A stretch of DNA of 64,000 nt, taken from positions 2,844,699 through 2,908,698 of the forward strand of contig CM082581.2 in NCBI GenBank assembly GCA_040954595.2. The letters are read 5' to 3'. This document shows, in pieces, positions 2,323-38,336 of the stretch (its first letter is position 1; each line of letters begins with the position of its first letter). The position numbers and the translations under genes are program-made. The stretch comes from Balanoglossus misakiensis (taxonomy: Eukaryota > Animalia > Hemichordata). Below the pieces are notes generated by a model. That model worked only from the letters and a program-made list of their open reading frames with translations, had not been told where the DNA came from and did not search any database.

Positions 2323-5132
2323 TTAATATTTGCCCCTCGCATACTTTGTGGCCAGTTTCATTTCGGGCGCGTCCGCCTTAGTGCCCGTCGTTTGGTTATC
2401 CAGACTCCGATGAACACCCCTGATGTAGCCATTCCGACGGGCTTGGCCAGTCGGGCTTGTCACTGTGTTTGTAGCACTTGCCGTTTCACCGCGGTGGCAA
2501 TCAATGTTTACATCTGGGGGTTTATCTCCTTCACCATCATCACACCACTGCGTGTACTCGTTTTCTGCGCTTACGTTGCTGTTTGAAGGTGTAGCCGCAG
2601 CATCTTCGGTCCCTGTGTCCCGCTCAGGCTGCATGTCAGCGGAACTGTGCTTCCCAATTTTGTAAGTAGCCCTGCGACTAGCAGCAGTGGTGTCCTTACA
2701 TACACCCGACGAGTTCTCTCTAGAACCTGTCATTTCTGTATCACCAAAAGGTGTAGCATTCAGGTCATACGATTGGTCACCGGTTACCATGACATCGTGA
2801 CTGCGGATTGACGCTTCTGGTTGTGCATGGTGTATATCATGATGGAAGTTGTCTTCTCCAGATAACTCTTCTGGATTTTGTTTCTTCTGGCTTTCTTCAA
2901 GGGGGTACGCTTCGCTGGAAACCTGTTCATCACTTTCCTCCTTCACGGGAGAGTGGGTAATGTCTTCTCGGCTACCTGGAAGAGAAATTACACCAACAAA
3001 ATTCATTAAATATGCAAAAACCCGCAGATGCCTCAGAGATGGATTCAGCATTATCTAGCAAGGTTGCGATCATAGGCCTAAAGATGGACGAACAGACTAA
3101 ATAAAGACGGACGAACAGACATAAAAACGGACGAACAGACACACAGACATCGCCATGACACCATAGCCCTCGTCACGGTGACGTTGTGTGACAACTGACA
3201 ACAGCCATTTGCAGTTGGTTGTCAGTAGCATCCAGGTGAGGGCAACGCCCGCATGGACTTCTCACCTCTTAGTGACATTTTCACTCTCTCCAGCTGTGCA
3301 TGATACATGGCCATGACTGCATCCCTTCTACCGATACATTCCAAGGCTTTGATCAGATCAGACACGCTGTAGTTTGGTCTGTCATGTTGCAAGTCCGTTA
3401 TGATCTCCTCTGTAGGGCTTGGAGCATCCTTGAATCGTTCCTGCAGGTCAATCAAGAATGTCATGATTAAGGCCTACATGACTCATGGAGCTCCATGCAT
3501 GACTCAAATACGCACCTCTAGCACATGCAAAAACACATCAGGCCTAACAGGCAACGAACCAAAATCGAAGGAGGATAATTTGCTGACCCCACACTTACCC
3601 ACTGGTAACCGAGCTTATCTGCTAATGCTTGATAGAGCATAGAGCATAGAGCTCGTATCTGTAAAGTGGTCAGATCTGACACCAACTCGGGAAGCTGTAA
3701 CAAAAATCTAGAATATAGGCCTATACCGTTTTTTATGTTTGTTTGTTTGTTTGTTTGTTTTTATAATGTCACACCAGACAAGGTAGATTGCTTTTGTTTG
3801 AGCGAAAGAAAGCGTTGCACGCCATGTATGTTTGGTTGTCAACTTACATGCATTTGCACTCTAATCCAATCACATAGCACGTTAGCATATACACATGCAA
3901 TCTCCAAAACAATGGACACTAATTTGTAGGTGGCGTAAATGACTGAATCTAAGCGTTATTGCAGTAATTCTCACCTCCTTTGCCAAAACTTCAGCATTAT
4001 GTTCTTCCTGGGACAAATAAATACAACAACAAAAACAACAGTATTGATATGTGAGAATTGACATTGGCGCTCACTACTAGCCCGATAACACAGAATCACT
4101 GAAAAGTCCATTCTGAATACGAGAACAAGAATACCTATATATCAATATCAATATTAAAATTGCGTCTTATTCTTAAATTACACCCGTGCGAATCAGAAAT
4201 GACAGGATGGGCTAACCTTGTGTACGACAGTTTCGGGGAATATTTCATCACTGTCAACGACTTCCGACTTTCCTGTTACGACGTCACTCACTACGCAAAG
4301 CCGAAAATTGACGTTTGCCCGCTTAGTTCCGTTTTCCCGCTTGCCACGTTGTCGTAGCTCCTCGAAGTAGGCCAGACTGAAAATTTTTTCGAGTTCCTCA
4401 TCTGTCACGAGAGAGTTGATGGTGTCGTAACCCCAGTGGGATTCTGGCAGCAAAGACCCGTCATCACCTGTGTCAACATACTTGGAGAACTTCAAAGCCA
4501 GTTCTCCCGGGCACGATTTGCTTACCTGTGAATAGTGATGCCAAAAGAAACTGTTTGTGGGATTGCAGAGGCATTAATTGGGACACGATAGTTGCTGATT
4601 CGATACAGTCGTCTGTTTTCAATACATGTAATACGACACATTGTGCAACACAATGACACAAACCTAAACATTTTACAAACTAAGGCAGCATAATGGAAAT
4701 CTTCGTGACAGAACTAACAATACTGATCAGATATTTTTCTAGGCTACCTACCTGAAGGAAAAATTCACCAACACCAATCCTTTCTTTCGGCCCGAACAGA
4801 TGAATAATGACTTTATTACCTTGGACAAGAGGGATGCCCTGAAACGAAACATTGATGAGGGAAAGTATGTATTTTATTTTAGAATGATAAGATGAAAGAG
4901 GGGGCGGAGAGAGAGAGATGGTATGAGAGAGAGAACGGAGAGACAAACTTGAAATACCCACTTTTGCTTTTAACTTTCGTAAGAGTTGTATCGTCGGCGC
5001 CACATACTTTATCTTCATATCAGAAACTCTTCCTTCATAATTTGTGTCACATAAACGTTTCAGTTTGCGAATATCAAGGTGTGGATAATCGGCTCCAAGC
5101 GCGATTTCCAGCTCTTCGGCGACCGCTTCCAT
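2323..5132 (-). CDS. Multi-exon protein (~500 aa): N-terminal helical segment, Rel/NF-kB dimerisation (IPT)-like region, death domain, acidic disordered tail
   Basis: Phase-compatible GT-AG exons 5132-4962, 4838-4752, 4525-4217, 4007-3975, 3694-3599, 3440 (or 3473)-3266, 2975-2323. Death-domain pattern ALADKLGY...SPTEEII...YSVSDLIKALECIGRRDAV; IPT-like GEFFLQVSKSCPGELALKF and RANVNFRLCVVSD. Confidence 0.7.
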
Positions 5133-5375
5133 GATCTGCAGATAAACACAAATAAGGCGAAAACTGCACTTAATTGTCAGCCAACCTTGAAAGTCTCACA
5201 AAGTACATGATTTATTACTATTTAAACAATGAATTTCTGTTTACCACTTCAGAAATGATGTCAGCAGAGAAAATAGTCTGAAATTCGGATCACGTGATGA
5301 ATATACCGAGAAAACGAGACGGGGCTTTGGTGTCCGGTGTCTGGTCAAGAATGTGGAATTAATTACGCCGATCTC

Positions 5376-6778: not shown

Positions 6779-9700
6779 ATGGACGAGGAGCAGTCGGCCA
6801 AGCTGTATAGAGCTGTCACAAATCTACGTCATCTGATCGAAAAAGGGACATTGGTTTTGGTCATTGGTGAAGAAACATCCATACTTCCCAAACCAGCCTC
6901 ACTTGACGATTGGTGGAACGTAATCCCGGAACTAGACGACGAGGTTTGGTTAAATAATTCAATTATTTCTACATTTACTGTAAATACAATAATCACATGT
7001 TGAATTGTCGCCAAGTAAACTCACCCGAATGATGCGAAATATAACCCTTTTGACAATTTATACCATTCTAGCTTGCTTAAATTCAAAGCCAACTTTCAGT
7101 TTCGGTAAAATTTGCATTTTGAAAGCGCTATGCGCATGTGTCAAAAGCTGTGTACGTGTACGGAGGTACATCGCCAAAGGTCAATGCACCTGTTGCAAAA
7201 ACTGCAGATATGTCCTGCAAAGAAATATGAAGAAATTGGCCATTTACAGACAAACTGGCTAGACTGCCCTTATCACCTATCACCTATATATGCTTGTACG
7301 GAGATTCTCGATGGCAGGAATAAGAGGGACACAGTCACGAGGAACTTTTCAAAATGGGGTCAAAAGCTGACAACGTAGACTCTGTGCATAGACATGTATG
7401 CCGTCAGTTCAACCGACCAATTATTTTGAATACATACCACAAAGTTACGTCATGGGTAGCTCGACAATGAGTCATCCGAACAAAGCATGCACATAAAGAA
7501 GGTGAGAGAGTGCCGCTGAAAACGACCTTGTTAAAACGAAAGGGAATGGGGCTACGTTATTTTGAAGAAGAACTTGTACTAAGAAAATGAGAATTTACAA
7601 ATTACAAATTATTTACAAATTACATGCATGATAAATGTTCTTAACATCCAGGTTAATCTCTGCATTAAAATTCCAGAAGGTTCCTGATATTCTCACACGG
7701 AAAGAAAATGAGTACATGTCTCAACAGCCTCAAGGCCAGTCACGCTTTCATAACGTTCTCAGAACACTTGGAAGATTCCCTCTAATCATTACAACGAATC
7801 TTGACGAGTTGCTGGAACGACTTCTGTGGAACTCAGGGGCACACGGTGAGAGGCTGTACCTCAAACAGGTGAGAATGCCGTCATTTATAGGTCAGTAGGC
7901 AAAAGGTTACAAAAATACTTCCAAGCAGTAAATCGGTCCAGCTGTGATACGTTTAATACATGGCGATATCAAAACCAATAAAATATTATACTAGGAAATC
8001 CACTCGAACAAAGTGAAAGATGCAATGTGCTTGATTAATGATTGATGAAATCTAAATTTGTGATTTTAGTTCTACTGGAATATCAATTGTTGGGTTGGGC
8101 TATGTTCAAGATTTATAATAAACATTTTATGTTAACCTATCTGTTTATTTTAGATTTCGCTTTTGGAGAAACACTGGCCGAATTATCATCGTGACGTCAT
8201 CATCAAATGTTTTGGCGATTCCAGTTTCCAGACCAGAGTCAGCGTAAATATTCTCTTTTCATTGAATTCATGTCCAGGCGTTCTGCTTTACAATTTCCGT
8301 TGTACATTATAGCAAGGAACGAACATGGATGACAACTATTCAAGATTAGATGCTGTCGTAGTAAAGACTACGATTCGAGCAATTTGTATTATCCTTACTC
8401 GCAATATAGAGTGTACTGAAAGCATAATGAGGCGGGAAAGAGTTGAACTGGGACTGCTGCCTGGGGTTGAACAACCGCGCATGTGAACTTCGTATGAACC
8501 TCTCAGCTATGTTTACATTTGTCACGAGGAAGGCCTTAAGGGAACACGTCATAGCAGGCTTTGTGAAAACACCTGTGGTGAGTAACACAAATTAACAAGA
8601 ATGCAAGGCCCTTGAAGCTGTCCATTATAATTTCATATTCATAAACATTACGTCATATCCTTATTCATTACACCTCAGAATTCAAACCGGAAGTATTTCG
8701 AAGAATTATGCCAACAACACGAAGATGAAAATGTAAATTTCCTGCGGCGAATATTTGACGAAAATAGTGTGCTGTTCCTTGGCTGTGATGCTGGTCACGA
8801 AATTTACAAAAAGTTTCTGAATAAATTTGCTACTCAAAGCAAGGTAAAAATAATTATTCAGTTTTATTATGTGAATCATTCCAAGCAAAGTCTTCAATGA
8901 AAATCATATTCAAATTATTTTGTTCATCTCGTTCACGAGAGAAAGTCTTATTTGACGCAGTTGGTCTAAAATCTAGTTACTCGCCTCCTGATCGTTTCAT
9001 TTGCACAGGGCAGTCACTATCTGTTCAAAAGCGCTGAAGATGGAAGTAGAAGTTTCATCCAAAATGGTAGCCTGTCAATTTTGGAAGCTGATTTGGAATT
9101 ATGGGAATTCATGCAACATCTCAGCAGCGGCAAAGGCATCCGGGCGATTCAAGATATACATCCGGGCAAGGTGCAGTGACGTCATGTGGCTGTTTGTTAT
9201 AACTGATAGTACACAGTACTCGGTATAATTGTCTGATAGTTGGCCTTACAGAGAAAATCAACATGAATTCTGTTTTTAGGGGCACAAGCCTATCGGGCCC
9301 AAATTTCGGATGACCTTTGACCTACTTCCCTATATATTGGCATCCAGAGCAGGTACAGACTTGGCGTTTGGAGGATTGGCACTAAAATTGAAAAGCCAAA
9401 ATTGGGGCACAAGTCTACATGTATTTTGAAGAGAAGACTTTTAAATTCTTTTCATGGATATGAGTCATCATATGACCGGAACTTGTCACAATTTTTTTTG
9501 GCAATTTACACATGACCTTTGACCCAGTTTTCAAACAACTAATTATATATGCATATGCCATTTACCTCCTCTTGTAAAAGTACCACAGTCATGTATTTTG
9601 TGTACATGGGTACCACTGGTGCCAGGACATGACACAAATATTTTGGTAATTTTGGCAATGACCTTTGACCTATTTCTGATACATCATTTTTCTGCATATC

Positions 9701-12700
9701 TAATTCCAGGCTACAGCTCTGGTTGTGGTTGGACATGGCCCACTATGGGGTCAAAATTTTATGGCCCAATTTTGGGTTACCTTGGGTGACCTTTGACCAA
9801 CTTTCCCATATCTCAGCATCCGGAGCAGTTAGACCACTGGCGTTTGGGGGTTTGAGCACATAATACAGTCTTACACAAGACCTCATTAATTATGTGCATA
9901 TCTAATTCCAAGCTAACCAACAGGGCTAGAGGTTTGGTTTTTGTTTGACATGGACAAGTACGGTGTCAAAATGTTTTGCCCAAATTTGGGGTGACCTCAG
10001 GTGACCTATGACCTACTTTCCCATATCTTGGTATCCACAGCAGATACAGCCTTAGCATTCGCTGGTTACCATGGGAACCGCTTGTGCCCCGCCAACGCTT
10101 GCAGCTTTAATTTAATATTTATTATCATATCCACATACTTCTTGTTAAGGTGTGTTTTTCAGCGTATTTTTCCTCTTCAAAACGAAAGAGCGTGTTGAAT
10201 TGTAACTGGTTCCATTGAACACAGAATTATCAAGATTATCACGAAGATTTATCAACAAACTCACACATAAAACTGCAAAGTTTAGTAAATTAATTACCTT
10301 GTTTATCGCAAATCACCCAGTACTGAAAAAATGTTCTTCTCCGTTTCAAGGTCTACGAAGTCTCGTTTCTTCCCACGCAGCGCGAGAGTTACCTACGTCA
10401 GCAGTTAATGTTGGAACAGAACGCCACCGAAATAGACTTCCACACTACCAGTATAACGAATGCATTGACGACCAATGAACTTATGGAACAAGTATCAAGA
10501 CCGTCACTCGTCAACATTTACAGAAAAGACCCGTTTGGTGTGTTGATTTCAGTCTGTTTATGGGCGACTGAAATGCTTCTGAGGGATTAGAATCATAACA
10601 GCAGAATGATGGTTTACAGGAAAACAGGCTGGGCTGGCATTAAAATTACTGTGTTAAACACAAATATACACTGACAGCAACTGTATTTTTACATTTTACC
10701 CACTGGTACAGAATGAAAGTTCCAGCATTTGGTAATTTGTCCAATTATTGAAACGGCCAGCGTAAAGCACCCTAACCGAGAGAAGAGCTATATATTGTGT
10801 CTGTGAATGAATGAATGAATGAATGAATGAATGAATGAATGAATGAATGAATGAATGAATGAATGAATGAATGAATGAATGAATGAATGAATGAATGAAT
10901 GAATGGCTCTTTAATGAAGTTTGTAAACATTTCTATTTAGGGAGCTACTCGGATGAAGAAGTGGACAGGGCACTCAAAGCGATGTACGATCGAAGAAATA
11001 ACCTAATTCAGGTGCGTGAGATCATCAATTTTAATTTCCACTAATACCCTCGTCAACAATACATGACCATATATGATCAAAATTCAGAATTTTGTGGAGT
11101 GACTGTGAGTGGACATGAAATATTCGACGTTGCTCGAATCGCTCGCTATATTTTGTACATTTCTATCACTTTGATATGTTCTAGGCTATACAGTCTGGCG
11201 TTAGAGTAATCGCCATCTTTCTGTACGAAAGCGTGCTCGCTGAGATCGACCCCAACAAACAGAAGGACGAAGAGAAGCGCAGAATGGCGTTGAGAAAGTA
11301 CGCTAAGGCCATCTTACTCTGCAATACACTTTTGAAAACGAAGAGTTCCCTAGAGTTGCTGATGGTAGAGGGAGGAGACCGCGAGTCTGAAGAAAGCCGA
11401 AGATTGAAGAAGGAAACGTTTGCCATAATAAAATTAAAAGGTACCTCTATTAATCTTACGTGCTTGAATGACCTCGCAATCTTCTCAGTTGACAAACTCA
11501 GAAGGGGTTTGTTTCGGGTCGTGTGCAGTTGTCTCGATGGAATGTCTTTGATTGGTCAATTCCTCTTCAATGCCCTCTTCAAACATGTGTACAACAAACC
11601 ATGCGAAACGCATGAGGATATGCCTTCCCTGAATCGTAGAATATGTCACCGTAAGATTTGTATTTATTGTACAGCATCTGAAAGATAACAAGTTATTCTG
11701 GCAGGCATTGACAGGAAAGTTTGTTCCTTGATTTTCAGGAGGTGTTGACGAAGCCATTTGCTATGCGGAAACCGCCACTGCTGGTCAAAAGAACGTGACA
11801 ACTCACCTGGTGGTTGTGAACGGCGAGGAGGTGGCAAGGAGGAGAAAGATCTTTGACGCCAGCCGTGAAGGCGCCTGGGATTGCGATAGGACTGTGCTCA
11901 AACTAACAGCTGCTGTCTTACAGCACAACAAGGGAACGAATGCGATTGAAGTACGTGTGTTTACAAATGAACGAAATTGAATATAGTTTCTAATTTTCTA
12001 AATGATTCTCTTGGACTGGTGAGTTGTCGCTCTTAATCATTCTCTATCTGTCTGTCTATCTGTCCAGGCAGAGGACTTGAAGCGTTTGAACAGCCTCCAT
12101 GATGTTCACCTCATTGTGGATCAAGACAACGTCATTCCAAGCAAACTTGAACCGCTGGGTAAAGGACAGTTCGGAGAGGTGTACAAGGTGGTCGACAAGA
12201 AGGGAAACACCTACGCCCTCAAAGTCTTGAAAGAAATGGACGAGGCAGACTTCACTCAGCTTGTTGACTTCAGAAGGGAAGTAGAGACTTTAAGGTACGT
12301 CGAAGAATCGGCGAGGCTAGTGTTAGGAATGACTTCAGGAGGGAAATTCTAATACTGACGTTTTCTTATATTTTTTAACCCAGAAAAGCGTCACATCCCA
12401 ATATTATCAAATTGGATGATGTGGAACGACAGGGTAACAGACTCTGTCTCAAACTTGAATTCGTCGATGGATGCGATCTCCGCAAAGTCATTCTACCCAA
12501 GGACGGACGACCTCAACCGCAGAGTAAAGAATTTGCCTTCAGATGTGCGACTCAAATTGGCGATGCGCTCTCGCATTTACATAAATTGGGGATTGTTCAT
12601 CGTGACGTGAAAGCCGAAAATGTTCTGGTAAGTTGTCTTGCATCATGTCTCTTCCATCTTGTGCTGGATCGTTCGTTACACCGATTTTAATCTTTATTCT

Positions 12701-15700
12701 TTAAAACTGAATAATTTTCTTGTGTCCTTTTAAGATAACACGAGATCAGCAAACGTTCAAACTTGGTGACTTTGGTCTGGCACGTACCACCAGAGGAACA
12801 CTGAGTAAGAAGACTCTAGTTGGATCGATGCGTTACATGGCCCCAGAAGTCAAGCAATCAGGGAATTACTCGGTGACAGCCGACGTATTTAGCTATGGTA
12901 CGAGAAGTCTATTTTGTTTGACTGTAAAGACCGTAGAATATTATTATCATGGGAAAGTGTATCCAGTATTGTCTGTATTGCTTTGCATACTTGGCAGAGA
13001 ACTTTGCTGACGCCTTGAAATCCGTAGAAGTATACATGTATATGTAGCAACGAGCTTGAAGTTTCGTATCCAACTATCTTACATTACATGTAACGCAATA
13101 ATCTGCCCCTGGTAAATGTTCTCTTATGTGTGTACACAGAACATTGTCCCTGAAGACGATGTATAGTTGGTGGCGAGGTATTAACGTTGAGATTCTGTGA
13201 CACTTGGTGTATTTCCTCCTTTTAGGTCTTATGCTGCTTGAGGTTATAAGTGGAGATTACGTGTTTTCAAATATATTGGATGATGAAATTGTCTACGACC
13301 AGAAAGAAACCTTGGCTCCACCCATTCCGGTAAATCTCCACTAAATTCCTGCCTAGCCTGGTAATTTTTTCTGACTAATTGCAAAGTGGTGATGTGCATT
13401 TATACACTCTCCCTTCCAATAGTGTAAGTTTTAAGTCCTTGGTATGTACGAGTGTTTTGGGTGACGCTTCCTTGTCTACTCTGTTTCATTCAGGACATTT
13501 GTGAATCAGTACATGGTTCGCAGATGAAACTGGTGTTGACAATGTGTCTGAAGATAACTCGAAATCGCCCCAAGATGGAACAGATCTTGGAGATTCTGAC
13601 GACAACTGAAACTTCCCAGCTAAAGGCACAGTCTAGTTACGGTCATGAAATCGAAATGCTGTGTCTGGGAACTGGAAAAGGCACAACGGGTAAGGGCTTA
13701 CCACACTTTATCGAACGGGTGTTTGTCAGCAATAGTTATTCTATACCCCGCGACTTAGTCCTTTGTATACATGTAACCAAGCCCAGTTTGGGAAAAGATG
13801 TTTCTTACCTCAACTACTGACTTCTTTTTTTCTCAACTTTATCTTGTACTATAAGCTGCCCTTTTTGGAGAGCCAAGTTCGTCATTGGCTATTCTCGTTC
13901 GCGGCAAACCCTTATTGCTTGTAGATGTTGGCCTTGGTGTTTTGAAGTCTTACAGAGAGCACATAGGTAAGCACTTCTATTTTACGTACGGAATATTGTT
14001 GGAACGTATTTCACTGCTTTTTCTGCAGTCGCACTACATTTCCCTAGAATGATACTTTATTTTTTCACCTAATTAGGCGATGAATTGCCACCAAAGTTAT
14101 TCATCACTCATAACCATCTCGACCATTCTGGAGAACTAGCCCTTGGACTCTTCTTGACAACGGAAAAGATGAAACAGATGCAAGTGGCAGGAAAGATTTC
14201 GATCTTTGCTGGACCCGAAGTTGTGCCTCGTCTTAGAGATCATCGTCTGGATGAAATCTATAGCGCAATACCAAGAGTAAGTGTATAGTTTATCATAGTG
14301 GGACTCAAATTCTTGTGCAGGTGTAACTGTGGTGCATACTTGTTTATGTGTGGAGGTTTGCATATGGGAATTTAGGTAGGCCTAGTCTGGCATGTAGGTA
14401 CAAAGACGCATAGAGCTATAGGAAGTTCGACTCGCCATGTTGACAGACACTGGTATTACACATAGGCACGTTGGATTGCATATGGTATCTATACTCAGTC
14501 ATGCTCATGAATTATAGTATCGTTGGCGATGAGTGTTTTGGATTTAAGTGTTAAACGGTTGATAACTGTTTAACATGGTGATTTTGATTATAGGATAAAT
14601 TAGATGCCTTTCTGAAATGGGTAGAATGTGTGGAAGACACCGCTGTGTTTCTTGATCAAAACAAGTTGTTTTCTCTGAAAGCCTACAAGAGTCAACACCA
14701 AGAGACTTGCTATGGTAAGAAATGATAACAAACAAAATCTGGGAATCTTCGAGTGGTGTTGAAAGTTTTTCGTAAACACGATAACTTCTCAAGATCTTGA
14801 CATGGATAAATTTGTAACACGTTGGTCAGACTAGTTCCGTGTTACCATGTGTTGTAGATGACGAGTCGTGATTACTTTGTATTTCGACTGACAGGATTTG
14901 TTCTGTACTGCGAGGAGAAACCAATTCTTGGCTACACAGCCGACTCTGCGTACAACAAGGAATTGTACGACCGAATCTTTGTAGCCCCAACAGTGGTTGT
15001 AGATGCACGTGTTCAAGGGAACACAGAACATGCCTCGGTGAGTTACAGAGCCAAGCATTAAACAGGTTCCTCTTGACTTTGCACAAAAATATATGATGAC
15101 GTCATACTTACAGGCAGAAGGAACTAAGACACAGGATATAGTGCGATATTATTTACCTATGCCCGGAATGGCTGCACAGTATGATTCATGAGAAATCGGA
15201 CAATTTATTTGCAGACTAATAAAATATTCATTGCTTATTTGTAACAGTTTGATGAACTTCTGAAATACCTGGAATGTAGAGAGGTATGTTTTCCTCTTCT
15301 CTTTGTATGATTGATGTGTATGTTTGACAAATAATGTGCGTGCATGGGCGTGCTTTCAATTCTGTGGAAAATAGTTCAATGGTGACGCTGTATGTGCCCT
15401 GCCCAGTAACGTTGGTTAGATGAGACGAGTGCTGCTCGTCTTCATATCTTCAAAGGAAATGTTCTACATGTGTATGTCGTTTGAATGGACTAATTCTCAG
15501 AAATTATATCTTATCATTGTACCAGGTGAAGACTAGCCCACATGTTCTGGTAATCGGCTATGGTACGGCTGACGATTGGCCCAATGCCAAGGACATGCCC
15601 CGAATAGACCAAATGCATCGTGGTACCACTTATACTCTGTGGCCACTTGAAGACGCCCGAGAAACCTCTCCCGTGAAGAGACAACCAAAATATAAGAAAG

Positions 15701-15717
15701 TGGAAGAAGCAGTTTGA
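6779..15717 (+). CDS. SIR2_2-like / DUF5753-like / Ser-Thr kinase / metallo-beta-lactamase-fold fusion protein (~1,090 aa)
   Basis: Phase-compatible exons 6779-6943, (7460-7501?), 7677-7868, 8154-8243, 8679-8843, 9009-9170, 10351-10537, 10941-11011, 11185-11440, 11739-11950, 12068-12294, 12384-12627, 12735-12897, 13226-13329, 13494-13689, 13856-13966, 14077-14276, 14594-14714, 14895-15037, 15248-15283, 15526-15717. Motifs IITTNLDELLE and VLFLGC (SIR2_2); GKGQFG/YALK/HRDVKAEN/DFG/YMAPE/DVFSYG (kinase); LGTG/VDVG/THNHLDH/YTADS (MBL). Confidence 0.85.
9270..10070. repeat. Degenerate intronic repeat rich in TGACCTTTGACC units
   Basis: Recurrent tgacctttgacc...ttcccatat...gcatcc blocks near 9311, 9511, 9660, 9788 and 10002. 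Confidence 0.55.
10805..10904. repeat. (GAAT)n microsatellite
   Basis: Pure tetranucleotide run in an intron. Confidence 0.97.
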
Positions 15718-16404: not shown

Positions 16405-16615
16405 CATGACGAGATGCCTATACACTACCAGTCAAACGCAGGTCTTTCAGTTTACACTTTGTAGTGCATAGGCGACAGTCACTAGAACCACTGCTGGACA
16501 GCGGTTCTGTATGATAACGGGTCACATATCACTACGTTGTGAGTGATTGTTTTATTGGGGCTTCCCTCTTCTTCAGGTCTTTGGAGTTCTCAAGTACATG
16601 TATAGAAGAGACGCG

Positions 16616-19509
16616 ATGACCTCTACGATCAGATTCATCTACTTCCTGGTTTGGTCGGCAGCCCTAAACTGCTGTGCAGCTGACGTTGGTGAGTAATTCT
16701 TCATCTGTAGAAAATCACAGCCTGACCACTCGTCGGTGTCAGGTGTGTGGAGTGACCGGCGTTTGCTGGCATGGCAAAAACCTTCCACTCGGACTCATGG
16801 GTGGCGTGTAAACTGTCTTAGAAATATATAAAACGGATATGAAAGGGACTCTCTTTCATGACTTCCCCTTTCTTCTAAGACATGGCACTTGCCCCGACGC
16901 GACTGTGCTTCGAAATGGGAAGCTTGCGGGCGCCTTCGATGCAGCTGGTATCAGAGTTGCCATGTTTTAGCTGATGCAATGATATGCAGCCAATTTTCAA
17001 CAGGTGCACCCGTCAGTACCTGTGTTGCCTCATGCATGCTTGAAGGGAAGAATACGCACCCCAATAACATACATTTTCTTCATGTCACTGCTGTCAATTC
17101 AAGAAAATTGACAGTGCATTTCCATGTCAAGGCGTACAGTATTTAAATTTTATAGGGAATCGGTGAGTTTCCTTCAAAGATCACTCACGTCTTTCAACAT
17201 CTTCTTTCAACAGGATATATTTGGCACGTGACTGATTTTCACTACGAAGTGAATTACACTGCGGGGGACTACCCCGAATCAAGTTGTCGAGATCTTGGAG
17301 GGGAGACTCCTAATTACTGGGGCGATTATAGGTGTGACTCCCCCTGGACTCTCATCAATTCCTCAGTCTATGCCATGCAACAAATTGAACCCAATCCAGA
17401 CTTCATCATATGGACTGGGTAAGGCAGGAAGCATTTAAACTAAATCCTAATATCTATTCTTTTTTCTTTGTTTGAGTGTAAAGAATTAGGTCTTTATTGA
17501 TGCATTGATGCATCACAAACATGTATTATGTTCAAAGCCAATACCAGTTCTTGTATGAACCTTTCAGAGATGATACTCCTCATGTACCAGACGATAATTT
17601 GGACACGGACAAAGTATTAAATTACATTTGGAACTTGACAGCCATCTTGATCGAGGCATTTCCAGGCAGGAGTGTATTTCCGGTACTCGGTAACCATGAC
17701 TACCACCCCAAACACCAGATGCCGCCAGAACCCAACCCTGTCTACGATCAAGTCGCTGATTGGTGGAATGCGCACTGGCTGAGTCAATACCCTGGTGCAG
17801 AAGATACATTCAGAGAAGGTTTGACCTTTTTTGCTGGCAATGATAATCAATTGAGATTAAGAGTGAGTGAATGAGCGAATGAATGAATGAATGAATGAAT
17901 GAATGAATGAATGAATGAATGAATGAATGAATGAATGAATGAATGAATGAATGAATGGAGGAATATATGACTGACTGACCGACTGACTGACTGACTGAAT
18001 GAATGAATGAATGAATGAATGAATGAATGAATGAATGAATGAATGAATGAATGAATGAATGAATGAATGAATGAATGAATGCAGGGATAAATGAGTGAAT
18101 GAATAGCTTCGTGGATGGGTTGATGGATGGATTGACGGATGTATAGTACAAGATAAATTACAAAATTACAATATTTGAAATGCATGTTTATATCTATTTA
18201 GCTGCGTATTATACAGCGGAGTATCAACCTGGACACAGAATTGTTGGGCTTAACACTGTGTATTATTATACAAACGACAAAGTTACTGCTGATATGGAAG
18301 ACCCTGGCAACCAGTTTCAGTGGCTGGAAGACATCCTGGGGAACGCCACCCTGACCAACGAAAAGGTATGTTATTAAACCACGCCATGATCAATGCAGAC
18401 GTGTGACACACTTTGGATGAGAAACAGTACCACCCTTGTTCTCTCTTATTCTTTGTAGGTATATCTCATTGGACACGTACCGCCTGGTGTTTTTGAACGA
18501 CACGCTGGAAAGTCATGGTACTATCCAAAGTTCAACGAACGGTACATCCAGATCATAAGGAAATACTATAGTGTTATTAGTGGGCAGTTCTTTGCTCACC
18601 AGCATGATGACAGCTTTAGAATGTTCTACGATGAGCAAGGTGAGCTTTGTCTTACATTTAGGCAGTTTGCACACACCTGCTGATACATACGTAAACTTCA
18701 AGATTGCTTAAGCCTTATGTACTACTAGTTACTTGGTTTTTTGCCAGAAAAACAAAGCCAACGTTTTGCTGACAAGAAAAGTAGTCCCGAACGTTTCACA
18801 AAATGTCGCCAGTACAGTGTATGTTTACTACTATTGCCTCACTAGACGCCCTTCCTGATTGGTGTACACGATACCCCCACGATGTGTACGCAAACGTTTG
18901 GCAAATCCACCACGACCTCTCTTTGGTAACACATGCCGTAAAGAGGCCCGTGTTTACGACGGTGACGAGGCTATTATGATGGTCATTATTGTCTTATATA
19001 ATACGACAGGCAATGCTGTGAGTTCGTTGCTGCTGGCCCCTGCTGTTACTCCCTGGAACACCACATTATCAGGAGTTGGGCCAAACAACCCTGGCATCCG
19101 CCTTTTAGAATTTGACCGAGACACCTGGGAAATATTAGACATCAAACAGTACTACCTTGACCTTTCGACAACTGACAGCTCCTCTCTACCAGAATGGGTT
19201 TTGGAATACTCAGCCAAAAACGCCTATGGTATTGGTGACGTCACTACCAGTTCTTTGCAGACTCTAGTAGAATCGTTCAACGGAAGCGACAGCGATAATT
19301 TCGACAAGTATTACCTGTACAACAGCGTCAGCTACGACAGCAGTGAGTGCACAGCGCAGTGCAAGACCGAACAGGTCTGTGCAATCACCAAAGTGGATTT
19401 CGATGAGTACAGTGCCTGTCTTGGTGGAGACACCACGGCCGGCGTCGATTGCCTTATCTCATCGTTATTCTTGAAAGTCGTACTCATCATTGTGCAATTC
19501 TTCTTCTGA
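16616..19509 (+). CDS. SMPDL3: Acid sphingomyelinase-like phosphodiesterase (SMPDL3 family) with signal peptide and hydrophobic C-terminus
   Basis: Exons 16616-16688, 17214-17418, 17568-17818, 18202-18365, 18459-18639, 19010-19509. Calcineurin-like motifs TDFHY, WTGDDTPH, LGNHD, GHVPPG, FFAHQHDD, plus WGDYRCDSPW and APAVTPW...NNPGIR. Confidence 0.93.
17868..18103. repeat. (GAAT)n/(GACT)n compound microsatellite
   Basis: Tetranucleotide arrays in SMPDL3 intron 3. Confidence 0.95.
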
Positions 19510-22869: not shown

Positions 22870-25800
22870 ATGCCGATCGTGGTCGAACCCAAGAAGCCTA
22901 GAATGTGTACCGGCATGCGTTTCCTTAACTTATGGATAAATATATCCCTTTCAAACTTTATAAACTGACAGAAATACCTTGTTACCTCATTGAAGGCGAT
23001 CCGCATTTCAAAATGGACGATAAGAGTGGGTACGACCACGTCCTCATTGCTAGAAAAGACAGAACTTATCTTGGTTTTCATTAGGTTGGTGTGTGTTTTG
23101 TTTGATACACCCTTCCATTTGGATGGAAGCTATCTGCATATGTCTACCACACGATAGGGTATTGCCTTACGACTTATACTCGAGACGTGGGTGTACATGT
23201 GTACTATGTATTCAATACATAGATTACATGTATACTGGTGGCCCTCTGCACGTATCCCCGGTAAGGCGGGCGAAAAATAATTGGTCGGGTATGGAGCGCG
23301 CGGAATCAGCCGCATATATCTTGGCAGCGCTGTCGGTAATTACCGGTTATTTTTTGGCAATAGAGAAACTTCATTTTAAGGCCAGTAACCTCTCTAGTGA
23401 TGCTAGCATCCATGACATTTGCTATCCCTCATGATAGAAAGGATAAACTCCTGGAGCTAACAGAAAGCATTCTCACTAAGAGAGCCGTCCCATTATCTCA
23501 AATCCAAAAGGTAATGGGGAAATGTATTTCTTTCACGCTCGCCATCCCATGTGCGAGACTATACATACGACAAATGGCAGGGGCAGTAGCAAAAGCCCCA
23601 AAAACGGCAACATATTTGGTGCCAATTAGAGGCGGCGTACGCGTGGAATTAAATGAATGGAAAATAGTCGTCAATGCCCAGCCATTTACATGGCTGACTA
23701 TGTCGCATGCAAAGTTGCAGCTTGTTACTGACGCTAGTTCGCATTCATGGGGTGCAATTCTGAATCCCGACCGTGATGAGGTAATGATGCCATTAAAGAT
23801 CGATGACATGTGGGACAAAGAATGGAGACAAGAACACATAAGGGACCGTTCAGTTTGTACGGCTGGGGGGCGTCAAGTTTGTGTCATGGGTTTTCAAAAT
23901 CAGGCCGACCCCCCCCCCCCTTCACCCAGGACCAAAAGATGATGACCCCCCCCCCCTTTGACAGGCCAAAAAATATGATGACCCCCCCCCCCACCACGCC
24001 GAAAACATTCGCCGTCCTGATCCTATGTACACTGTATGCAATAAAGGGAATGAGGCTTCCCACACCTCAATTCTAAATTTCTTAAAGTAATTGAAGTTTA
24101 TAGTAGTATATCTTTGCAATAAAAATGAATTATGAATAAATTAAAATGACAAGTCAATGCAATAGTTGGTAGGATTGGTAAAACAAGACAACTGGCGGGG
24201 TGGGTGTGGGAGGGGGTGTCCCCTGCAACATGAAAATTTTTTGTAAAATACGGTGCTCAAAATAGCATTTTAATGAACTCAAAAGCAAATTAACTCAATA
24301 TTGGGGAGGACCAATTTTACTTTTGCCACTCCACTCAAAGTATGCATCGGTGTTAGAAAATGTTGTAAAATAAAGGGCGCAAAACTGCAATTTTGTGGAC
24401 TCAAAAGCAAAAGTTTTGTGGCAAAAGTAGGTGACCCCCCCCCCCGTAAACTTTTTTTTTAAACGATGACCCCCCCCCCTTTTGGACTTCAAAATTTAAG
24501 TGACCCCCCCCCCCTGGATTTTGCAGCCCCCCCCCCCTCCCCCGCCGCTACGTTTACGCCACCGTTGAGTTGGCTGTTTGGTCCAAGGTTCGCCATTCAC
24601 TAAGGCTTGTCAATTTTGGGGACCTCAGTCCGACATAATTTCCGTTACAATATGCAATGCTAGGCTAGATGTATTCTATTCGGATTCTATGGTGCTGGTA
24701 AAAACTTAGAAGGGAGGTTATCCCGGCTCAAAATCTACGAAACTGAACCAAGTTTTGAAGGCCATTTTCCACTTCTGCGTAAAGCAGAATATCCAGTTGA
24801 GGTTAACACACATCCCTTCACTCAGCAACAGAGCGGATGACGCCTCCCGAGAAATCGCGATGGGCGTAAAAAAACTTAGCCGATTCCGTGTGGAGGAAAA
24901 TAGAACAGAAAATGTAGACGCCATGGCCAAGCAATCAAATGCAAAATTAACGCGTTTCATTGCCCATCAACCGTAACCTGGATGCGACGGTCATGAAGGT
25001 TTAGATTTTTTCTGCATACATCTTCAAGAATAATGACAACCTGTATAAATACCCCGTTTCCAATCAATCAGCCGTAGTCGCGCATGTAATAAAGCAAAGG
25101 TTGCAAGCTACTCTTGTTTTAGAGTTTGCTGGATCCACCCCCGTGTGCTGGCTCGTGGTAAAAGAATGCGCATCAGAATACTGTCGAGTGGCGACTAAGA
25201 GGGATAAGAATGCTATATTAGTCTCGGTAAAGGGGGGCTTTACACCGTACATCCTGCGTGGTGTTCTCGTCGCGGCGCACTTCGGACACTAGAGACATAT
25301 ATGTATAATGAGCGCGCATTCTTGAAATGTAAGTCAAATATAATAGTAAAATTGATTAATAAAAACAACAACAACAGCAACAACTAAATAATGTAATAAC
25401 TATTGGTGTTTTATATATGTTTAATTTAGGGCTGTTGGTTATGTGGCGCCCCGATAAAACCCAGTAATGCCGACGACCAAGCCAGCAATTGCCATATATG
25501 CTCGGCGAAATCGCTGAAGACAACAATAGGAGCTAACCCCAAAACGCTTCAAGTAGACGTCCACCAGATTGACTCTCGTATGAAGGAGATTTGGGGAGAA
25601 AAATCACCATATGAGATCCAAAAGGAAAATATGATGCGAAATTTGGAGGAATTCCAGCAACTTTTGTCTGACAGAAAAGGACTAACAGAAGCCTCCCCAA
25701 AAGATATTGTTAGATTTCTGATATTCAAGAACAAGGGAGCACGTACTCAAGTGCATAATGAATTGTGCCCGTATCTTGGTGACACGGCTGACTGTAATAG

Positions 25801-26020
25801 GCGCTGCGGCTGCCCCAAACGGCTTAGGTGTAGTACAATTATTAAAGAATGTCGTTGCAAAATTAAGTTCGTTTTATAACGCCATGCACAATATTGGCGT
25901 ATCCAGTTAAAATCCCGTGGCTTCTATTATGGTTGATAGATATGTTAAGAAATCAGCCGAAGAACAAGCAAGAGCACTCATCACCTCAAAACAGGCGGTT
26001 GGAGATCGGAAAAGACAGCT
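22870..26020 (+). mobile_element. Decayed DIRS-type (tyrosine-recombinase) retrotransposon: RT, RNase H and ALOG-type YR N-terminal domain fragments
   Basis: PIVVEPKKPRMC, KMDDKSGYDHV (RT); LVTDASSHSWGAIL and THIPSLSNRADDASRE (DIRS RNase H); DIVRFLIFKNKGARTQVHNELCPYLG...CGCPKRL (ALOG zinc motif); frameshifts and stops present. Confidence 0.8.
23840..24560 (+). mobile_element. G/C-tract-rich non-autonomous DNA element (Harbinger/PIF-like MITE) interrupting the DIRS RNase H
   Basis: Begins TA-AGGGACCGTTCAG, splits the RNase H frame; its 23900-24290 part recurs inverted at about 53170-53500. Confidence 0.6.
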
Positions 26021-32704: not shown

Positions 32705-35700
32705 ATGCCAGGAAAACTAAAAGTACGCGTGATAGCAGGCAGAGACCTGCCTGTAATGGACAGGGCCAGTGAAAGGGCCGATGCGTTTGTTGAGGTAAGG
32801 CAAGAAATTAATACACACTCACAGTCATGTTATTGATTGAGTTGTCATGCCTTGTATGTGTTGTATTTGCATGTAACTGTCGTCGGTTTCCTGAAACTTG
32901 TTGTAGTGCCAGAGTGCAATGCGTGATATCATGCAAGTTGTACGTAACTTTGTATGAATTTCCAGCGGATTTGAAGCAAAATGATGCATGTCATTGTCAT
33001 CCTTGTGCGGTAAATGATCCCTGCATTTTTCGAGTGCCAGAGTCGTCTAGTACTAAAATAGGAGTGCAATGCTCGGCCAGATAGTAGAGCGGCATAACAG
33101 ATTGATTGTGCATTTTGTGATAAAAGCACCAAACTTGGCTGAGATGTGTGTTAATGTGTACTAAACAAATTCAGATAGCGAGCCACTAAATATATGTTGA
33201 AGAGTTTCCCTGGCAACAATTTTTTGTTCATTTTTCTTTCAAAATGGCCGCCAATACAGATAATCTCACTCATAAAATAACAACTGTCAAACACCAAAAT
33301 AAATTCAGATTACAATATTTGAAACAAGAAACTGTGGAAAGAGTAATTTGCACAGTATTTAACATCACTGAACTAGTTATGGGGGTAAATACAGGTTCAA
33401 GATTCTTCAGTCGCTAAAGAAATTCAAGTTTGGTAATTATAGCTTAACAAATTTAGTTAAAACAATGTTGTTATTATTATTATTTATTTATTATCGAGAG
33501 CCAGCTCATATAAAAAGGACAAGTATATACAAAATTACAGCCAACACACAGACATTAAATAAAAATAAAAAACACACATTGAGAGACATTAAGATACAGC
33601 TAGTAAGGTTAAAAAGTCTAAAAATTCAAATGCAGTCAAGAAAGAATCTCTTCCAAAACGTACTATGATACATTATAAAAGGGTTGATTCCCACGACAAT
33701 AAGAGAGTTCTTGCTCTTCCACAACCTAAGATAAAATTTTGAGTGCAGAGTACGCTGTTTACAATCAAATGTTAAAATATTGCTATGAACAAAGGTATTA
33801 GAAATACTAATCCTTCTGTTGATCCCTAACAATATCCTATAGCTGTTGTTATATGCAACTCGGACATCATTTAAGCAATAACTATTAAAAACACTCCAAA
33901 GGTGGGAGCAATACATAGAAGAACAAAAAACTTGAAATAAACGAATTTTGACTTTATAAGTACAGTTCCAAAAATTACGTATTAACGAGTTGGCTCTGGC
34001 ATAAAAAAGCCTCATTTGTCGTTTTATATCGTCGCTATCGTCTCCATTGGTATTAAAAATAACCCCCAGGTAAGAGTGCTTGTTAACAAACAACAGCTTC
34101 TCCCCATACAAATACACATGTGGGATCTTCAAATTATTAAACTTTTTAGGGAGAATACACAGACATTTAGATTTAATTGCATTAAAAACAATATCATGAT
34201 CATTTGCATAATGGGTGCACACATTTAAGAGATTATTAATTCCTTTCGCACTGGGGCAGATCAATACTATATCATCTGCATATAACAGATGGTTCATACA
34301 TTTACCACCAAGATGACACCCAATATTTTTTTTGACAAGTAAGTCACTAAGCTTGTCGACATAAACTGAAAACAGACGCGGGGAAAGTATGCTCCCCTGT
34401 CTTACACCATTGCGAGTATTAAAACTCTCAGAAAGAACTGTACCCCATCGAACAACAAACTCTTGTATAACCATAAATATATAATACATGTATTATAAAA
34501 GTGGCCTGGCATAACCAAAATTTTCATAACATTCCTGCATTTTGTGATAAAAGTGTTAGTTTAACAAGTGATTCATCCCTCATCAATGAAACTCTGCCAC
34601 CAGGCTATAGCATCATCAGTGTTCCGCGTAAAGGTCGTGGGGGAGGCATCGCTACGATTTTTAAATCTTCACTGTTAGTGTCACAATGTCCACCTTCTAC
34701 CTCAATCAAGTCGTTTGAATTAATGGAGGTACGTATAAAAACTCCATCGTCGCATATCACACTAGCCACGGTTTACCGTCCTCCTCCGAATAAAACAAAT
34801 GGTTTCACTGTTGATGACTTCGTTAATGACTTCACTGACTTCTTGTCTTCTCATCTCACCAACAACGCCCCTCTTGTCATCACTGGCGACTTCAATTTTC
34901 ATATTGACAATCTGAACTGCCCAAATGCCCGGAAATATCATGACATTCTGGAGTCGTTTTCTATGAGTCAATTGATAACTTCTCCTACACATCGTGCTGG
35001 CCATACTATTGACCATATCATTACTCGTGCTGATGACAGTACCATCGCTGATGTCCGAGTTGAACCGATCCATGCGATCTCTGATCATTTCCCAGTGTTA
35101 TTCTCAATACGCAATTACTCTTACGTTAGAAACACGCGTAAATCTGTTACATCAAGGGATATGAAATCCTTTTCCGTTAATGGTTTCGCTGCTGAATTAT
35201 CTGCATCCATCCGCCTTCAACCCGATGCTGACGTATCTACTAATTGGGATTTGCTTAAAAACACTGTTAGCGATATATTTGATCGCCATGCACCAACCCG
35301 TGTGAGACTAGTGCCAAATAGGCGACCAGTGCCATGGATTAATCAGTCAATCATCGATGCCCGGTTGAAAAGAATGAAGGCAGAAAAAATGTGGAGAAAA
35401 TCTAGGTTGGAAGTACATCGCCAGATTTACAGGGCCTGTCGGACCGACGTCGTTCGCCTTGTGGATGCTGCTAAAAAGAACCATTATGTCGGCCTTGTTG
35501 ACGAGTGCTCAGGTAACCAAAAACAATTATTCAAGGTCGTAAAGGGACTGCTTGGTCACAATAACACATCCACTGTACTACCAAAACATGATGATTCTCT
35601 GGAATTAGCAAATCGTTTTGCAAAATTCTTCATTAATCGCGTAAAATCACTAACTATAAATATGGGCAATTCCATTCGACATCATTCACAACCACAAACT

Positions 35701-38336
35701 GAATTGAAATCCGATTGTCGCCTTAATGCCTTTGAGCCTACAACAGCTGATGAAATTGACAAGGTTATTCGTGCATCGCCTTCATCTACTTGTCGCCTTG
35801 ATCCGATTCCTACCAAGATCTTCAAACATTCTGACATTTTACAAGTTTTGTTACCACATATCACAGAAATCTTCAATAACTCTCTGCAGTATGGTGCTGT
35901 ACCTCCTCATTTCAAGGAAGCCATCGTTAAACCTCTACTTAAAAAGCCATCTCTTGATCATGAAGTTCTCAAAAATTTCCGTCCTGTATCCAACCTGCCG
36001 TTTTTGTCGAAGATCCTGGAACGTATTGTTGCCAAGAGACTGACTTCTCACATTGTCAACCATTCATTGGACGAGCCTTTGCAATCTGCTTACAAGCCAG
36101 GACACAGTACTGAGACTGCTCTCCTCAAAGTAACAAATGACATTTTGCTTGCTCTTGATGAAAAAAGAGATGTTTTCTTGGTATTACTCGATCTTTCCGC
36201 AGCATTTGACACTGTGAACCATACCATTTTACTCAATCGCTTAAGAGACCGCTTCGGTCTCTCAGATACTGTTCTCATGTGGTTTAAGTCATACCTTTCC
36301 AATCGTAGTCAGTGTGTACTTGTAAATTCCACCCAATCACCTTTTTATCCGCTCGACACTGGGGTACCACAGGGATCAGTTCTTGGTCCCATACTTTTCA
36401 ATATGTACACGTCTCCATTAGGTGAATTAGTTCAAAGTCATGGTTGTCTTTATAGTTTTTATGCAGATGACTCTTCACTTTATATGTCTTTTAGTAAAGA
36501 CAACGCAGCAAGAACTGTTTCAAATCTTGAACTTTGTATTTCTGATGTTAGGTTTTGGATGTCTGAAAACTTCTTGTGCTTAAACGATGATAAGACTGAA
36601 TTTGTTATTTTCTCTGGTATTTTGGGTGATCTGTCTGCTAGAGGGATTTCAGAAATTCGTGTTGGCGATTCTCTGATTCCCGTCCATTGTCAGGCTAAGA
36701 GCCTTGGAGTGATCCTTGACTCTTGTCTGACAATGAAGCCACATATTGGACAGATCTGCCGCTCTGCCACTTTTCATTTACGTCGCATTGCGCTTATCCG
36801 CAAATATTTATCTCATTCAGCTACAGAGCAATTAGTTCATGCATTCATTACGTCTCGAATTGATTCATGTAATTCACTTTTATTTGGGCTCCCGAAGTAT
36901 TCAATCAACCGTATCCAACGCGTTCAGAATATTGCTGCTAGAATTGTAACTCGTTCTAAAATCACCTGTCACATCACTCCAATTTTGTATCAGTTGCACT
37001 GGCTACCTGTTACAGAGCGTATTGTTTTTAAGATGTTAGTTCTCATTTTTAAATCCATTCATAAACTTGGTCCAATCTATCTTTCTAGCATGACTAATCT
37101 ATATGTTCCATGTCGCAATTTAAGGTCAGCTGATCAGTTCAAACTCTGCCCTGTTCGATCACGCACCAAGAGTTATGGTGATCGTGCTTTTACTGTTGCT
37201 GCTCCAATTCTTTGGAATAATCTTCCACTCACCATTCGCCAGGCACCAGACTTATCTGTTTTTAAATCAAATGTTAAAACTTTACTTTTTAAATCTGTTT
37301 TTTAGCCATTTGTTGTATTGTACTTTTGCTTTAAGCGTCATTGATCACATTTTTTTGTGGATACTGACGCTATACAAATAAATTATTTTTATTATTATGT
37401 CGCCGGGAGTTCTTCCACTTTTACCCGGGCAGTACTTTTCTATTGTTGAGATCATTGCCATGCATAGCGCCCTCACGAGCCTGCAGGGGGAGAACGTCCT
37501 ACATCATGGCGTCCCTCACCATGCAGGCAAGTGTATTTGTAGCGTCCAGATTTCTATCGAATATTTTCTATGTAAAGGTTGGCATCCATGCCCCATGTTA
37601 TACCACGGACAAAAGTAACATTTTGAGAACACTCGTTGAAAGTTTCAGTGTTTGATGTTGGATATTTTTCATGTTTTATTCCACTCTGTACTTACCATTT
37701 GTAGGCTTGTGTGCAGTGCCTATTGTCGTGCATGTTATTCCCATGTGTCAGTTCCTGACCATTTCGTACTTACCTGCCAATATATCGTTGTTCAGTGGTT
37801 TCCATACAATTTAAACAAACAGATATGACTACCTTTGGTATATCAAGCTATTTTATTTAGTGTTTTCAGAGTTTTGTAAGCTTCACACAGGCCATGTAGT
37901 GCGTCACATGACTAGACACCCTAGCTTACTGTGGATTGTTGAAACCCCATTTATTGAACCCATAACTCAGTGTACGTTCTTTTCCCTTCTACATCATGGC
38001 GTCCCTCACCATGCAGGCGATGCGGAAGAAAATAAAACAAGCAATGTGAAGCCATAACTGGTGTCGGCTGAGTTTATTATGTGTGAGCGGTACTGTGACA
38101 CTGATCAACAGAAAATAACACAACGCAATGACAATAAGACAGAACTATTGAAGTACAGAACTATTGAAGTACAGAAAATCAGTGCCACATCTGGTGCCGA
38201 GACCAGGATTGATCCACAGTTACGACCGTATCCAGTTTATGTGTGTATGCTGATTCAGCCAGCGGAAGTCCAGTGTATGCAGAGTTGCTGTATTGTGTGC
38301 GAGTTGTTGACTGCTCCACAAGGAACTTGCCTGTCG

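Follow-up and report, generated by a model that had tools for sequence, protein, structure and literature searches.

RNase L and IRE1 carry a kinase domain followed by a C-terminal KEN RNase domain, both placed behind an N-terminal sensor (ankyrin or luminal). Other close counterparts of the gene considered here are built on SIR2 domains, namely Thoeris ThsA (SIR2-SLOG), whose partner gene encodes the TIR signal synthase ThsB, the bacterial proteins KomC and DSR2 and, in eukaryotes, FAM118B/SIRal and the SIRim proteins. A single histidine is critical in FAM118 and ThsA: its replacement by alanine abolishes the activity of FAM118A/B (PMC12700824, available text), and mutation of H152 in ThsA or of H206 in SIRanc leads to the same loss (10.1101/2024.09.18.613514, available text). 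Section 8 of the main text of the latter preprint names NACHT/NB-ARC-repeat and Macro fusions, but not a fusion of SIR2, phospholipase D (PLD)-fold, kinase and metallo-β-lactamase (MBL)-fold domains. In this study, a gene with this architecture was analyzed at 6779..15717 on the + strand of a 64,000-nucleotide (nt) stretch of the hemichordate Balanoglossus misakiensis (the window; GCA_040954595.2, contig CM082581.2, positions 2,844,699 to 2,908,698).

The SIR2 and PLD-fold parts of the animal protein also exist as a bacterial protein, newly found here, whose adjacent gene in seven of eight loci encodes an MBL of the same subfamily as that of the window. A first-pass annotation had proposed a four-domain fusion of bacteria-like parts with an RNase L/IRE1-like logic. 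The fusion was recovered, with SIR2, PLD-fold, kinase and MBL domains in one reading frame, and no characterized equivalent was found in the literature searched. The bacterial pairing leads to a different view of how the parts may work together.

The gene and its four domains

The gene consists of 20 exons (Table 1), joined in phase through AG acceptors and GT donors throughout and closed by a single terminal stop, in agreement with the approximately 20 GT-AG exons proposed earlier. The product has 1,078 amino acids (aa) with the exon-3 donor at 8243 (1,076 aa in the first exon joining), compared with the earlier estimate of ~1,090 aa. Two alternatives, an acceptor for exon 2 at 7652 and a micro-exon at ~7460-7501, were dropped because the acceptor at 7677 keeps the phase and matches the RefSeq protein of Ptychodera flava (P0002, 1,078 aa). 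Aligned end to end with P0002 (1,077 columns, a single gap opening), the model is 81.9% identical; its identity to the Glandiceps protein P0003 is 72%. Given these matches, both to acorn-worm proteins and the nearest known, the gene is real and not a chance joining of exons. The kinase ends at ~13610 and the MBL domain starts at ~13641, both within exon 13494-13689, where the first-pass annotation had placed the junction. In addition, the Logan contig that carries P0009, a relative of 1,069 aa near the coral proteins, is no longer than 3,887 nt, as would fit a single spliced mRNA.

The first domain belongs to the immune-linked SIRim/FAM118 type of SIR2, as had been suggested. SIR2_2 (PF13289) matches P0002 with E 9.5e-14 (52.1 bits, Pfam cut-off 24.5) and single exons of the window with E 0.005, and a domain-1 profile retrieved FAM118B first among solved structures (9r3e, E 1.5e-9), followed by KomC and DSR2. 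As in FAM118B/SIRal and the eukaryotic SIRim proteins, an animal protein with bacterial defence-type relatives carries a SIR2_2-type domain with the catalytic Asn kept (Asn96); unlike them, Phe139 occupies the catalytic His position, the Gly-x-Gly loop is changed (Glu31), and the domain is fused to PLD-fold, kinase and MBL domains. The same pattern runs through the animal alignment (18 rows, four of them gapped at the two catalytic columns): the catalytic Asn (N163 in FAM118B, N112 in ThsA) is present in all 14 rows with a residue, whereas in the column of the catalytic His (H206 in FAM118B, H152 in ThsA) every one of the 14 has Phe or Leu and none has His. Glu stands at the second place of the Gly-x-Gly loop in 12 of 15 animal rows, and the catalytic His is found in 33 of 36 non-animal rows (alignment A10, with the animal protein P0027 left out). 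Since this His is needed in FAM118 and ThsA and is replaced in animals, the animal domain is predicted to be a pseudo-NADase that has lost its NAD-splitting activity, and the earlier idea that it acts as an NAD-consuming effector in this protein is not supported, given both the His column and the loop.

The second domain gave no Pfam match in any of ten animal sequences, DUF5753 (PF19054) included. DUF5753, the label chosen in the first-pass annotation, was a fair lead given weak matches in three of 48 relatives (E 4e-5 to 4e-4; whole-protein scores of 20.4-23.7 bits straddle the cut-off of 23.4), and no function is given for it in the available text of PMC10364602 and PMC8939145. Three of the four earlier labels were recovered by profile matches (SIR2_2, Pkinase and the MBL family); the fourth was recovered only weakly, and its domain has a PLD-type fold. 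The fold of the P0002 middle domain was predicted from a 49-row alignment with a pLDDT of 91.8, and Foldseek and VIA agree on the PLD superfamily. The best structural match is SauUSI (Z 11.9, root-mean-square deviation 3.1, 154 aligned residues), tied within ~1 Z with TrmBL2 (11.6), NucT (11.5) and FAM83B DUF1669 (10.9); TrmB structures reach Z 9.6-10.3, and the first 27 rows are PLD-type folds judging by their titles. The catalytic motif HxKxxxxD is found in none of the 49 rows, in which one Asn and one Met are invariant and several Arg, Gln, Thr and Glu residues nearly so. Further searches returned no usable match (Atlas features, middle domain), one chance-level row (PDB sequences, animal-only middle profile) and no match at E <= 0.001 (viral fold library).

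The domain shares its fold and its missing catalytic motif with the pseudo-PLD domains of TrmB/TrmBL2 (effector binding), FAM83 (DUF1669) and XRE-DUF5753 regulators, but its identity to these is 10-21%, and a pairing of a pseudo-PLD domain with SIR2 is not reported in the literature searched. TrmB binds sugars with a PLD fold, as stated in the title of its PDB entry. The active PLD-type nucleases SauUSI and NucT tie with the pseudo-PLDs in Z, and the fold itself therefore does not choose the function; on the structural model and the missing motif, a ligand-binding or scaffold domain is predicted.

The third domain is a protein kinase (Pkinase on P0002, E 2.7e-52) that is intact by the residue criteria for active Hanks-type kinases, with a Gly-rich loop, Lys552 in β-3, Glu571 in helix C, the catalytic Asp650 and the Mg-binding Asp669. 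No clear orthologue was found, with MLK, STE20, RAF and NEK chains tied at E 1e-27 to 1e-24.

The best solved match of the MBL profile is 7T28 (E 1.1e-11, collinear over profile positions 4-250 of 261), which is Bsp38 Apyc1 (PMC9117128, available text). As in Apyc1 and YhfI, the HxHxDH motif is followed by a later His, Asp and His (His860, His862, Asp864, His865, His950, Asp972 and His1001), and the ~260-aa domain, collinear with the arm-less 7T28, has no tRNase Z tRNA-binding arm. The relatives carry a precomputed PF23023 tag, and an Atlas search with P0022 returned Apyc1-tagged clusters, with feature scores of 0.76 (a lead only) and a best structural row at TM 0.84 by target. RNase Z is also among the matches (E 2e-7 for P0022, E 1.5e-6 for the MBL profile), although P0022 and P0026 score only 27-37 bits against NCBIfam RNase Z models with cut-offs of 252-293; the relatives also fall far under the cut-off of the NCBIfam cyclic-nucleotide phosphodiesterase model, and P0026 weakly matches PhnP as well as RNase Z models. 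Judged from these comparisons, the domain is of the class II phosphodiesterase type (Apyc1/YhfI/RNase Z group) and is not a member of Apyc1 itself. The MBL-fold hydrolase proposed earlier was thus retained, with Apyc1-type cyclic-nucleotide phosphodiesterases, and not RNases, as its nearest relatives. Apyc1 is a phage counter-defence gene, whereas the window-type MBL is host-encoded and tied to a SIR2 protein. Three stand-alone MBLs of the same subfamily (P0026, P0149 and P0150) have 244-262 aa and lie on short contigs.

A bacterial gene pair and a scattered animal family

A middle-domain profile retrieved 107 representatives, and SIR2_2 was present in 42 of the 48 longer ones scanned (four of the 48 are named animal proteins, and two that were looked up are named as bacterial). 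EAD11, Pkinase, CHAT, Trypsin_2 and TIR_2 occur as extra N-terminal domains of these relatives, P0107 being one with a fused TIR. Gene surroundings were taken from locus scans, with patterns from a five-member subgroup, that kept 80 of the 161 loci in genomes and 80 of the 198 in metagenomes, 160 SIR2 loci in total. Eight of these encode SIR2 with the PLD fold, including metagenome-assembled genomes labelled Anaerolineae, Flavobacteriales and Acidobacteriota. In seven of the eight, the gene next to SIR2-PLD encodes an MBL of the subfamily found in animals (E 5e-63 to 3e-50), which shares 32-39% identity with the window MBL; it lies downstream in six loci and upstream in one. In the eighth locus, L082, the upstream flank is just 70 nt long. 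The two genes are tightly spaced or overlapping in seven of eight loci. The same MBL was not found in the other 152 SIR2 loci (best score E 0.0087). A SIR2 frame was located in 151 of these, and 98 of the frames had more than 900 nt on each side.

All four domains are co-encoded in two of the eight loci: L083 has a kinase-SIR2-PLD fusion followed by the MBL, and L081 has kinase, MBL and SIR2-PLD in a row, the kinase gene abutting the MBL. That the animal kinase descends from these bacterial kinases was considered and set aside, as the identity is 28-30% and the kinase of a control locus (L008) scores higher; on these comparisons an independent recruitment of the kinase in animals is at least as likely. 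The gene-pairing evidence thus marks the MBL as the old partner of SIR2-PLD and the kinase as the variable part. Metal ligands of the MBL are invariant across the bacterial partners and the intact animal copies.

Like ThsA, KomC and DSR2, the bacterial relatives have an intact SIR2 domain followed by a non-catalytic domain that possibly binds a ligand; unlike in Thoeris, this second domain has a PLD fold in place of SLOG or Macro, and the partner gene encodes an MBL (seven of eight loci) and not a TIR signal synthase. The PADLOC models for ThsA and LmuA match the SIR2 part in 18 of 19 relatives, and no PADLOC model covers the C-terminal domain of the one member examined or the six partner MBLs scanned, that of L083 included. 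At L001, HEC-01A/B and PDC-M45 genes identified by PADLOC are found within 6 kb of the pair; these candidate defence genes (HEC-01A/B and PDC-M45B/C, at L001:3197-6841) are inserted in a mur-ftsQAZ cell-division cluster, as is the SIR2-PLD/MBL pair. Among the neighbours tested at L002, L004 and L005, none matched a PADLOC model. The bacterial system is rare, and class-wide samples around G002 and G004 yielded no new match in 400 + 400 genomes.

In animals, a single-exon query retrieved two proteins among 128 candidates, both RefSeq models (Glandiceps talaboti and Ptychodera flava). The middle domain retrieved 19 among 2,249 candidates, from hemichordates, Branchiostoma, stony corals and two myriapods together with one further protein, and the representative search with this domain added Antedon, Anneissia, Lingula and Saccoglossus, so that the family spans hemichordates, crinoids, amphioxus, Lingula, myriapods and stony corals. 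Among the named matches of both middle-domain lists, none is from a vertebrate or an insect, although many matches are nameless fragments. Most full-length members have an intact kinase as well as an intact MBL. Two forms occur in amphioxus, one with SIR2-PLD-kinase and a degenerate MBL that has lost its metal ligands (P0005-7), the other made up of SIR2-MBL proteins of 493-544 aa with intact metal ligands and no kinase (five of six matches in one search); the longest contigs reported for P0006 and P0024 are equal in length, and their genes may be neighbours. Several database models of animal relatives are partial or duplicated. In the coral models P0004 and P0011 the kinase or the PLD-kinase block is duplicated, owing either to tandem duplication or to gene-model error.

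A quick maximum-likelihood tree of SIR2+PLD with 54 rows (12 of 66 having been dropped as near-duplicate, partial or mis-modelled) places the 15 animal rows in one clade with SH-aLRT 100. Hemichordates with the crinoid, corals, myriapods, amphioxus and Lingula each group together. From this topology, animals probably acquired the module once, before the split of corals and bilaterians, with losses thereafter. A separate MBL-SIR2-PLD fusion with Asn-rich inserts and a long branch (P0105) probably comes from a non-animal eukaryote. The SIR2 motifs look eroded in P0105 and in P0093 and P0095, all divergent SIR2+PLD-fold proteins that are possibly further eukaryotic acquisitions with a separate loss of NADase activity.

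Proposed mechanism and rival explanations

The reading that we prefer, and on which our judgement is evenly poised, is that the protein is a small-molecule-gated signalling switch in which a bacterial ligand-gated NADase and its signal eraser were converted in animals to a ligand-gated kinase. The bacterial ancestor would have followed a ThsA-like logic with a different sensor: binding of a ligand to the catalytically empty PLD fold would turn on the intact SIR2 NADase, the neighbouring MBL would remove the ligand and thus act as a threshold or off-switch, and the variable N-terminal modules (kinase, CHAT, trypsin, TIR or EAD11) would supply the inputs. In animals, the module would have been fused, the NADase His lost and a kinase inserted as the output. 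A signal of nucleotide type would then be bound by the predicted-inactive SIR2 and the PLD-fold domain, which would also cluster the protein; the output, possibly in an immune or stress role, would pass through the kinase, and the MBL would destroy the signal as a phosphodiesterase.

Several observations weigh against this reading. In an HMMER alignment to 7T28, a residue other than Glu occupies the column of Apyc1 E74, and Y112 aligns with a gap (numbering matched by count, with a one-residue offset), and both residues are needed for cyclic CMP hydrolysis in Apyc1 (PMC9117128, available text); the window MBL lacks both, so that its substrate may not be a 3',5'-cyclic nucleotide. An enzyme that could make a signal is adjacent in none of the eight bacterial loci, defence neighbours recognized by PADLOC are present in one of four long-flank loci, the others lying among housekeeping or two-component genes (24 open reading frames scanned), no full-length match was found among eight viral loci, and no plasmid match to the MBL was found. 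Three non-animal rows likewise lack the catalytic His. The FAM83 pseudo-PLDs anchor a kinase, CK1, rather than sense a ligand (PMC6008594, available text). The SIR2+PLD tree comes from a quick search with no outgroup, on account of which the donor and the direction of transfer are only inferred, and a 28-row MBL tree does not recover the animals as one clade (two changes).

The bacterial pairing itself can be read in other ways. A toxin-antitoxin or guard arrangement, in which the bacterial MBL keeps the NADase of SIR2-PLD inactive, either as a binding partner or through steady removal of an activator, phage interference with the MBL releases the NADase, and the animal kinase fires when the MBL is blocked, would suit the close spacing of the two genes in seven of eight loci, the two separate fusions of MBL to SIR2-PLD (the window gene and P0105) and the amphioxus family, in which the MBL is intact on a SIR2-only carrier and degenerate on the kinase form. 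The invariant metal ligands, however, point to catalysis and not to plain steric inhibition, and we regard this arrangement as unlikely. A non-immune control of metabolites, by which the pair clears an NAD-derived or cyclic-phosphate by-product (e.g. ADP-ribose cyclic phosphate or RNA 2',3'-cyclic ends) whose level is signalled by the animal kinase, seems quite improbable to us: the mostly housekeeping neighbours in L002, L004, L081 and L082, the weak PhnP and RNase Z matches of P0026 and a slow, roughly vertical evolution in animals are consistent with it, whereas the very patchy bacterial distribution, the variable, conflict-type N-terminal fusions and the FAM118/KomC/DSR2 type of the SIR2 domain argue against it.

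The RNase L/IRE1-like switch of the first-pass annotation, in which the N-terminal domains gate a kinase that in turn switches on the MBL as an effector destroying RNA or nucleotides, draws on a real likeness: the window kinase precedes a C-terminal hydrolase and stands behind N-terminal candidate sensor domains, with the kinase-MBL junction in a single exon, RNase Z among the MBL matches, and kinase and MBL both intact in most full-length members. The window protein nevertheless has no KEN RNase, ankyrin or luminal sensor; its C-terminal domain is an MBL fold whose best full-length match is Apyc1, lacking the tRNase Z arm. Furthermore, its hydrolase is linked to the SIR2 module independently of the kinase, as the MBL accompanies SIR2-PLD with no kinase in five of seven bacterial pairs and is carried with no kinase by the 544-aa amphioxus proteins, and the amphioxus kinase form has lost the MBL metal ligands. 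The MBL is better described as an old SIR2-PLD partner than as a kinase-driven effector; the analogy with RNase L is weak, and we think it very doubtful that such a switch operates here.

Surroundings in the window and significance

Table 1. Exons and domains of the four-domain gene and other features of the window (positions counted from the first nucleotide of the window).
Feature	Position (strand)	Residues	Remarks
Exons 1-5	6779-6943, 7677-7868, 8154-8243, 8679-8843, 9009-9170 (+)		
Exons 6-10	10351-10537, 10941-11011, 11185-11440, 11739-11950, 12068-12294 (+)		
Exons 11-15	12384-12627, 12735-12897, 13226-13329, 13494-13689, 13856-13966 (+)		
Exons 16-20	14077-14276, 14594-14714, 14895-15037, 15248-15283, 15526-15717 (+)		
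SIR2-like (SIRim/FAM118-type) domain	6779..9131 (+)	1-245	Exons 1-5
PLD-superfamily fold domain	9165..11950 (+)	~257-500	Exons 6-9
Ser/Thr-type protein kinase domain	12134..13610 (+)	~523-785	
Exon 14	13494..13689 (+)		Kinase C-terminus and first MBL strand, single reading frame
MBL-fold class II phosphodiesterase-type domain	13641..15654 (+)	~796-1058	
Three upstream open frames	2323-5195 (-)		126-243 aa
(TGAA)n microsatellite	10805-10905		Intron 6; similar tract at ~17850-18150
Acid-sphingomyelinase-like gene	16576-19509 (+)		Metallophos E 0.008, ASMase_C E 4e-33
Mobile-element-like frames	23364-25879, 33626-37305, 38481-44227, 51872-52822		Judged by eye

The next gene downstream resembles SMPDL3, a nucleotide phosphodiesterase; its adjacency to the four-domain gene may be due to chance. 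The three upstream frames look like exons of a divergently transcribed gene and have no Pfam match. The mobile-element-like frames comprise DIRS-like pieces with an ALOG domain (E 6e-10), two LINE-type reverse transcriptase frames, the gag and a 1,488-aa pol frame of a long terminal repeat retrotransposon, and a recombinase-like frame with no Pfam match.

In searches for the architecture or its parts, no title or abstract opening in the literature searched describes the architecture, a set outside which most subscription papers fall, and the SIR2 passages of two 2026 reviews (PMC13434031 and PMC13276650) and of PMC8195603 do not mention the SIR2-PLD/MBL pair. The system is apparently an undescribed variant of SIR2-based signalling, present as an operon in rare bacteria and as a fusion in scattered animals. 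The PADLOC models tested reach no further than the SIR2 part of the bacterial two-gene system of SIR2-pseudoPLD and Apyc1-like MBL, and the animal protein, present in corals and several bilaterian phyla, keeps the bacterial pairing in fused form.

A bolder interpretation, which we put forward tentatively as possible rather than probable, is an undescribed nucleotide second-messenger defence common to bacteria and animals, with a pseudo-PLD receptor, a SIR2 NADase in bacteria and an Apyc1-like host eraser, the operon having been captured by early animals and turned into a ligand-gated immune kinase still used by corals, acorn worms, amphioxus, brachiopods and myriapods. If the preferred reading given above holds, nucleotide immunity would gain a sensor fold and perhaps a new signal, and an Apyc1-like enzyme would be placed in a host role. 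Animals would then have kept a whole defence operon while changing its output from killing to phosphorylation, whereas FAM118/SIRal stays an NADase.

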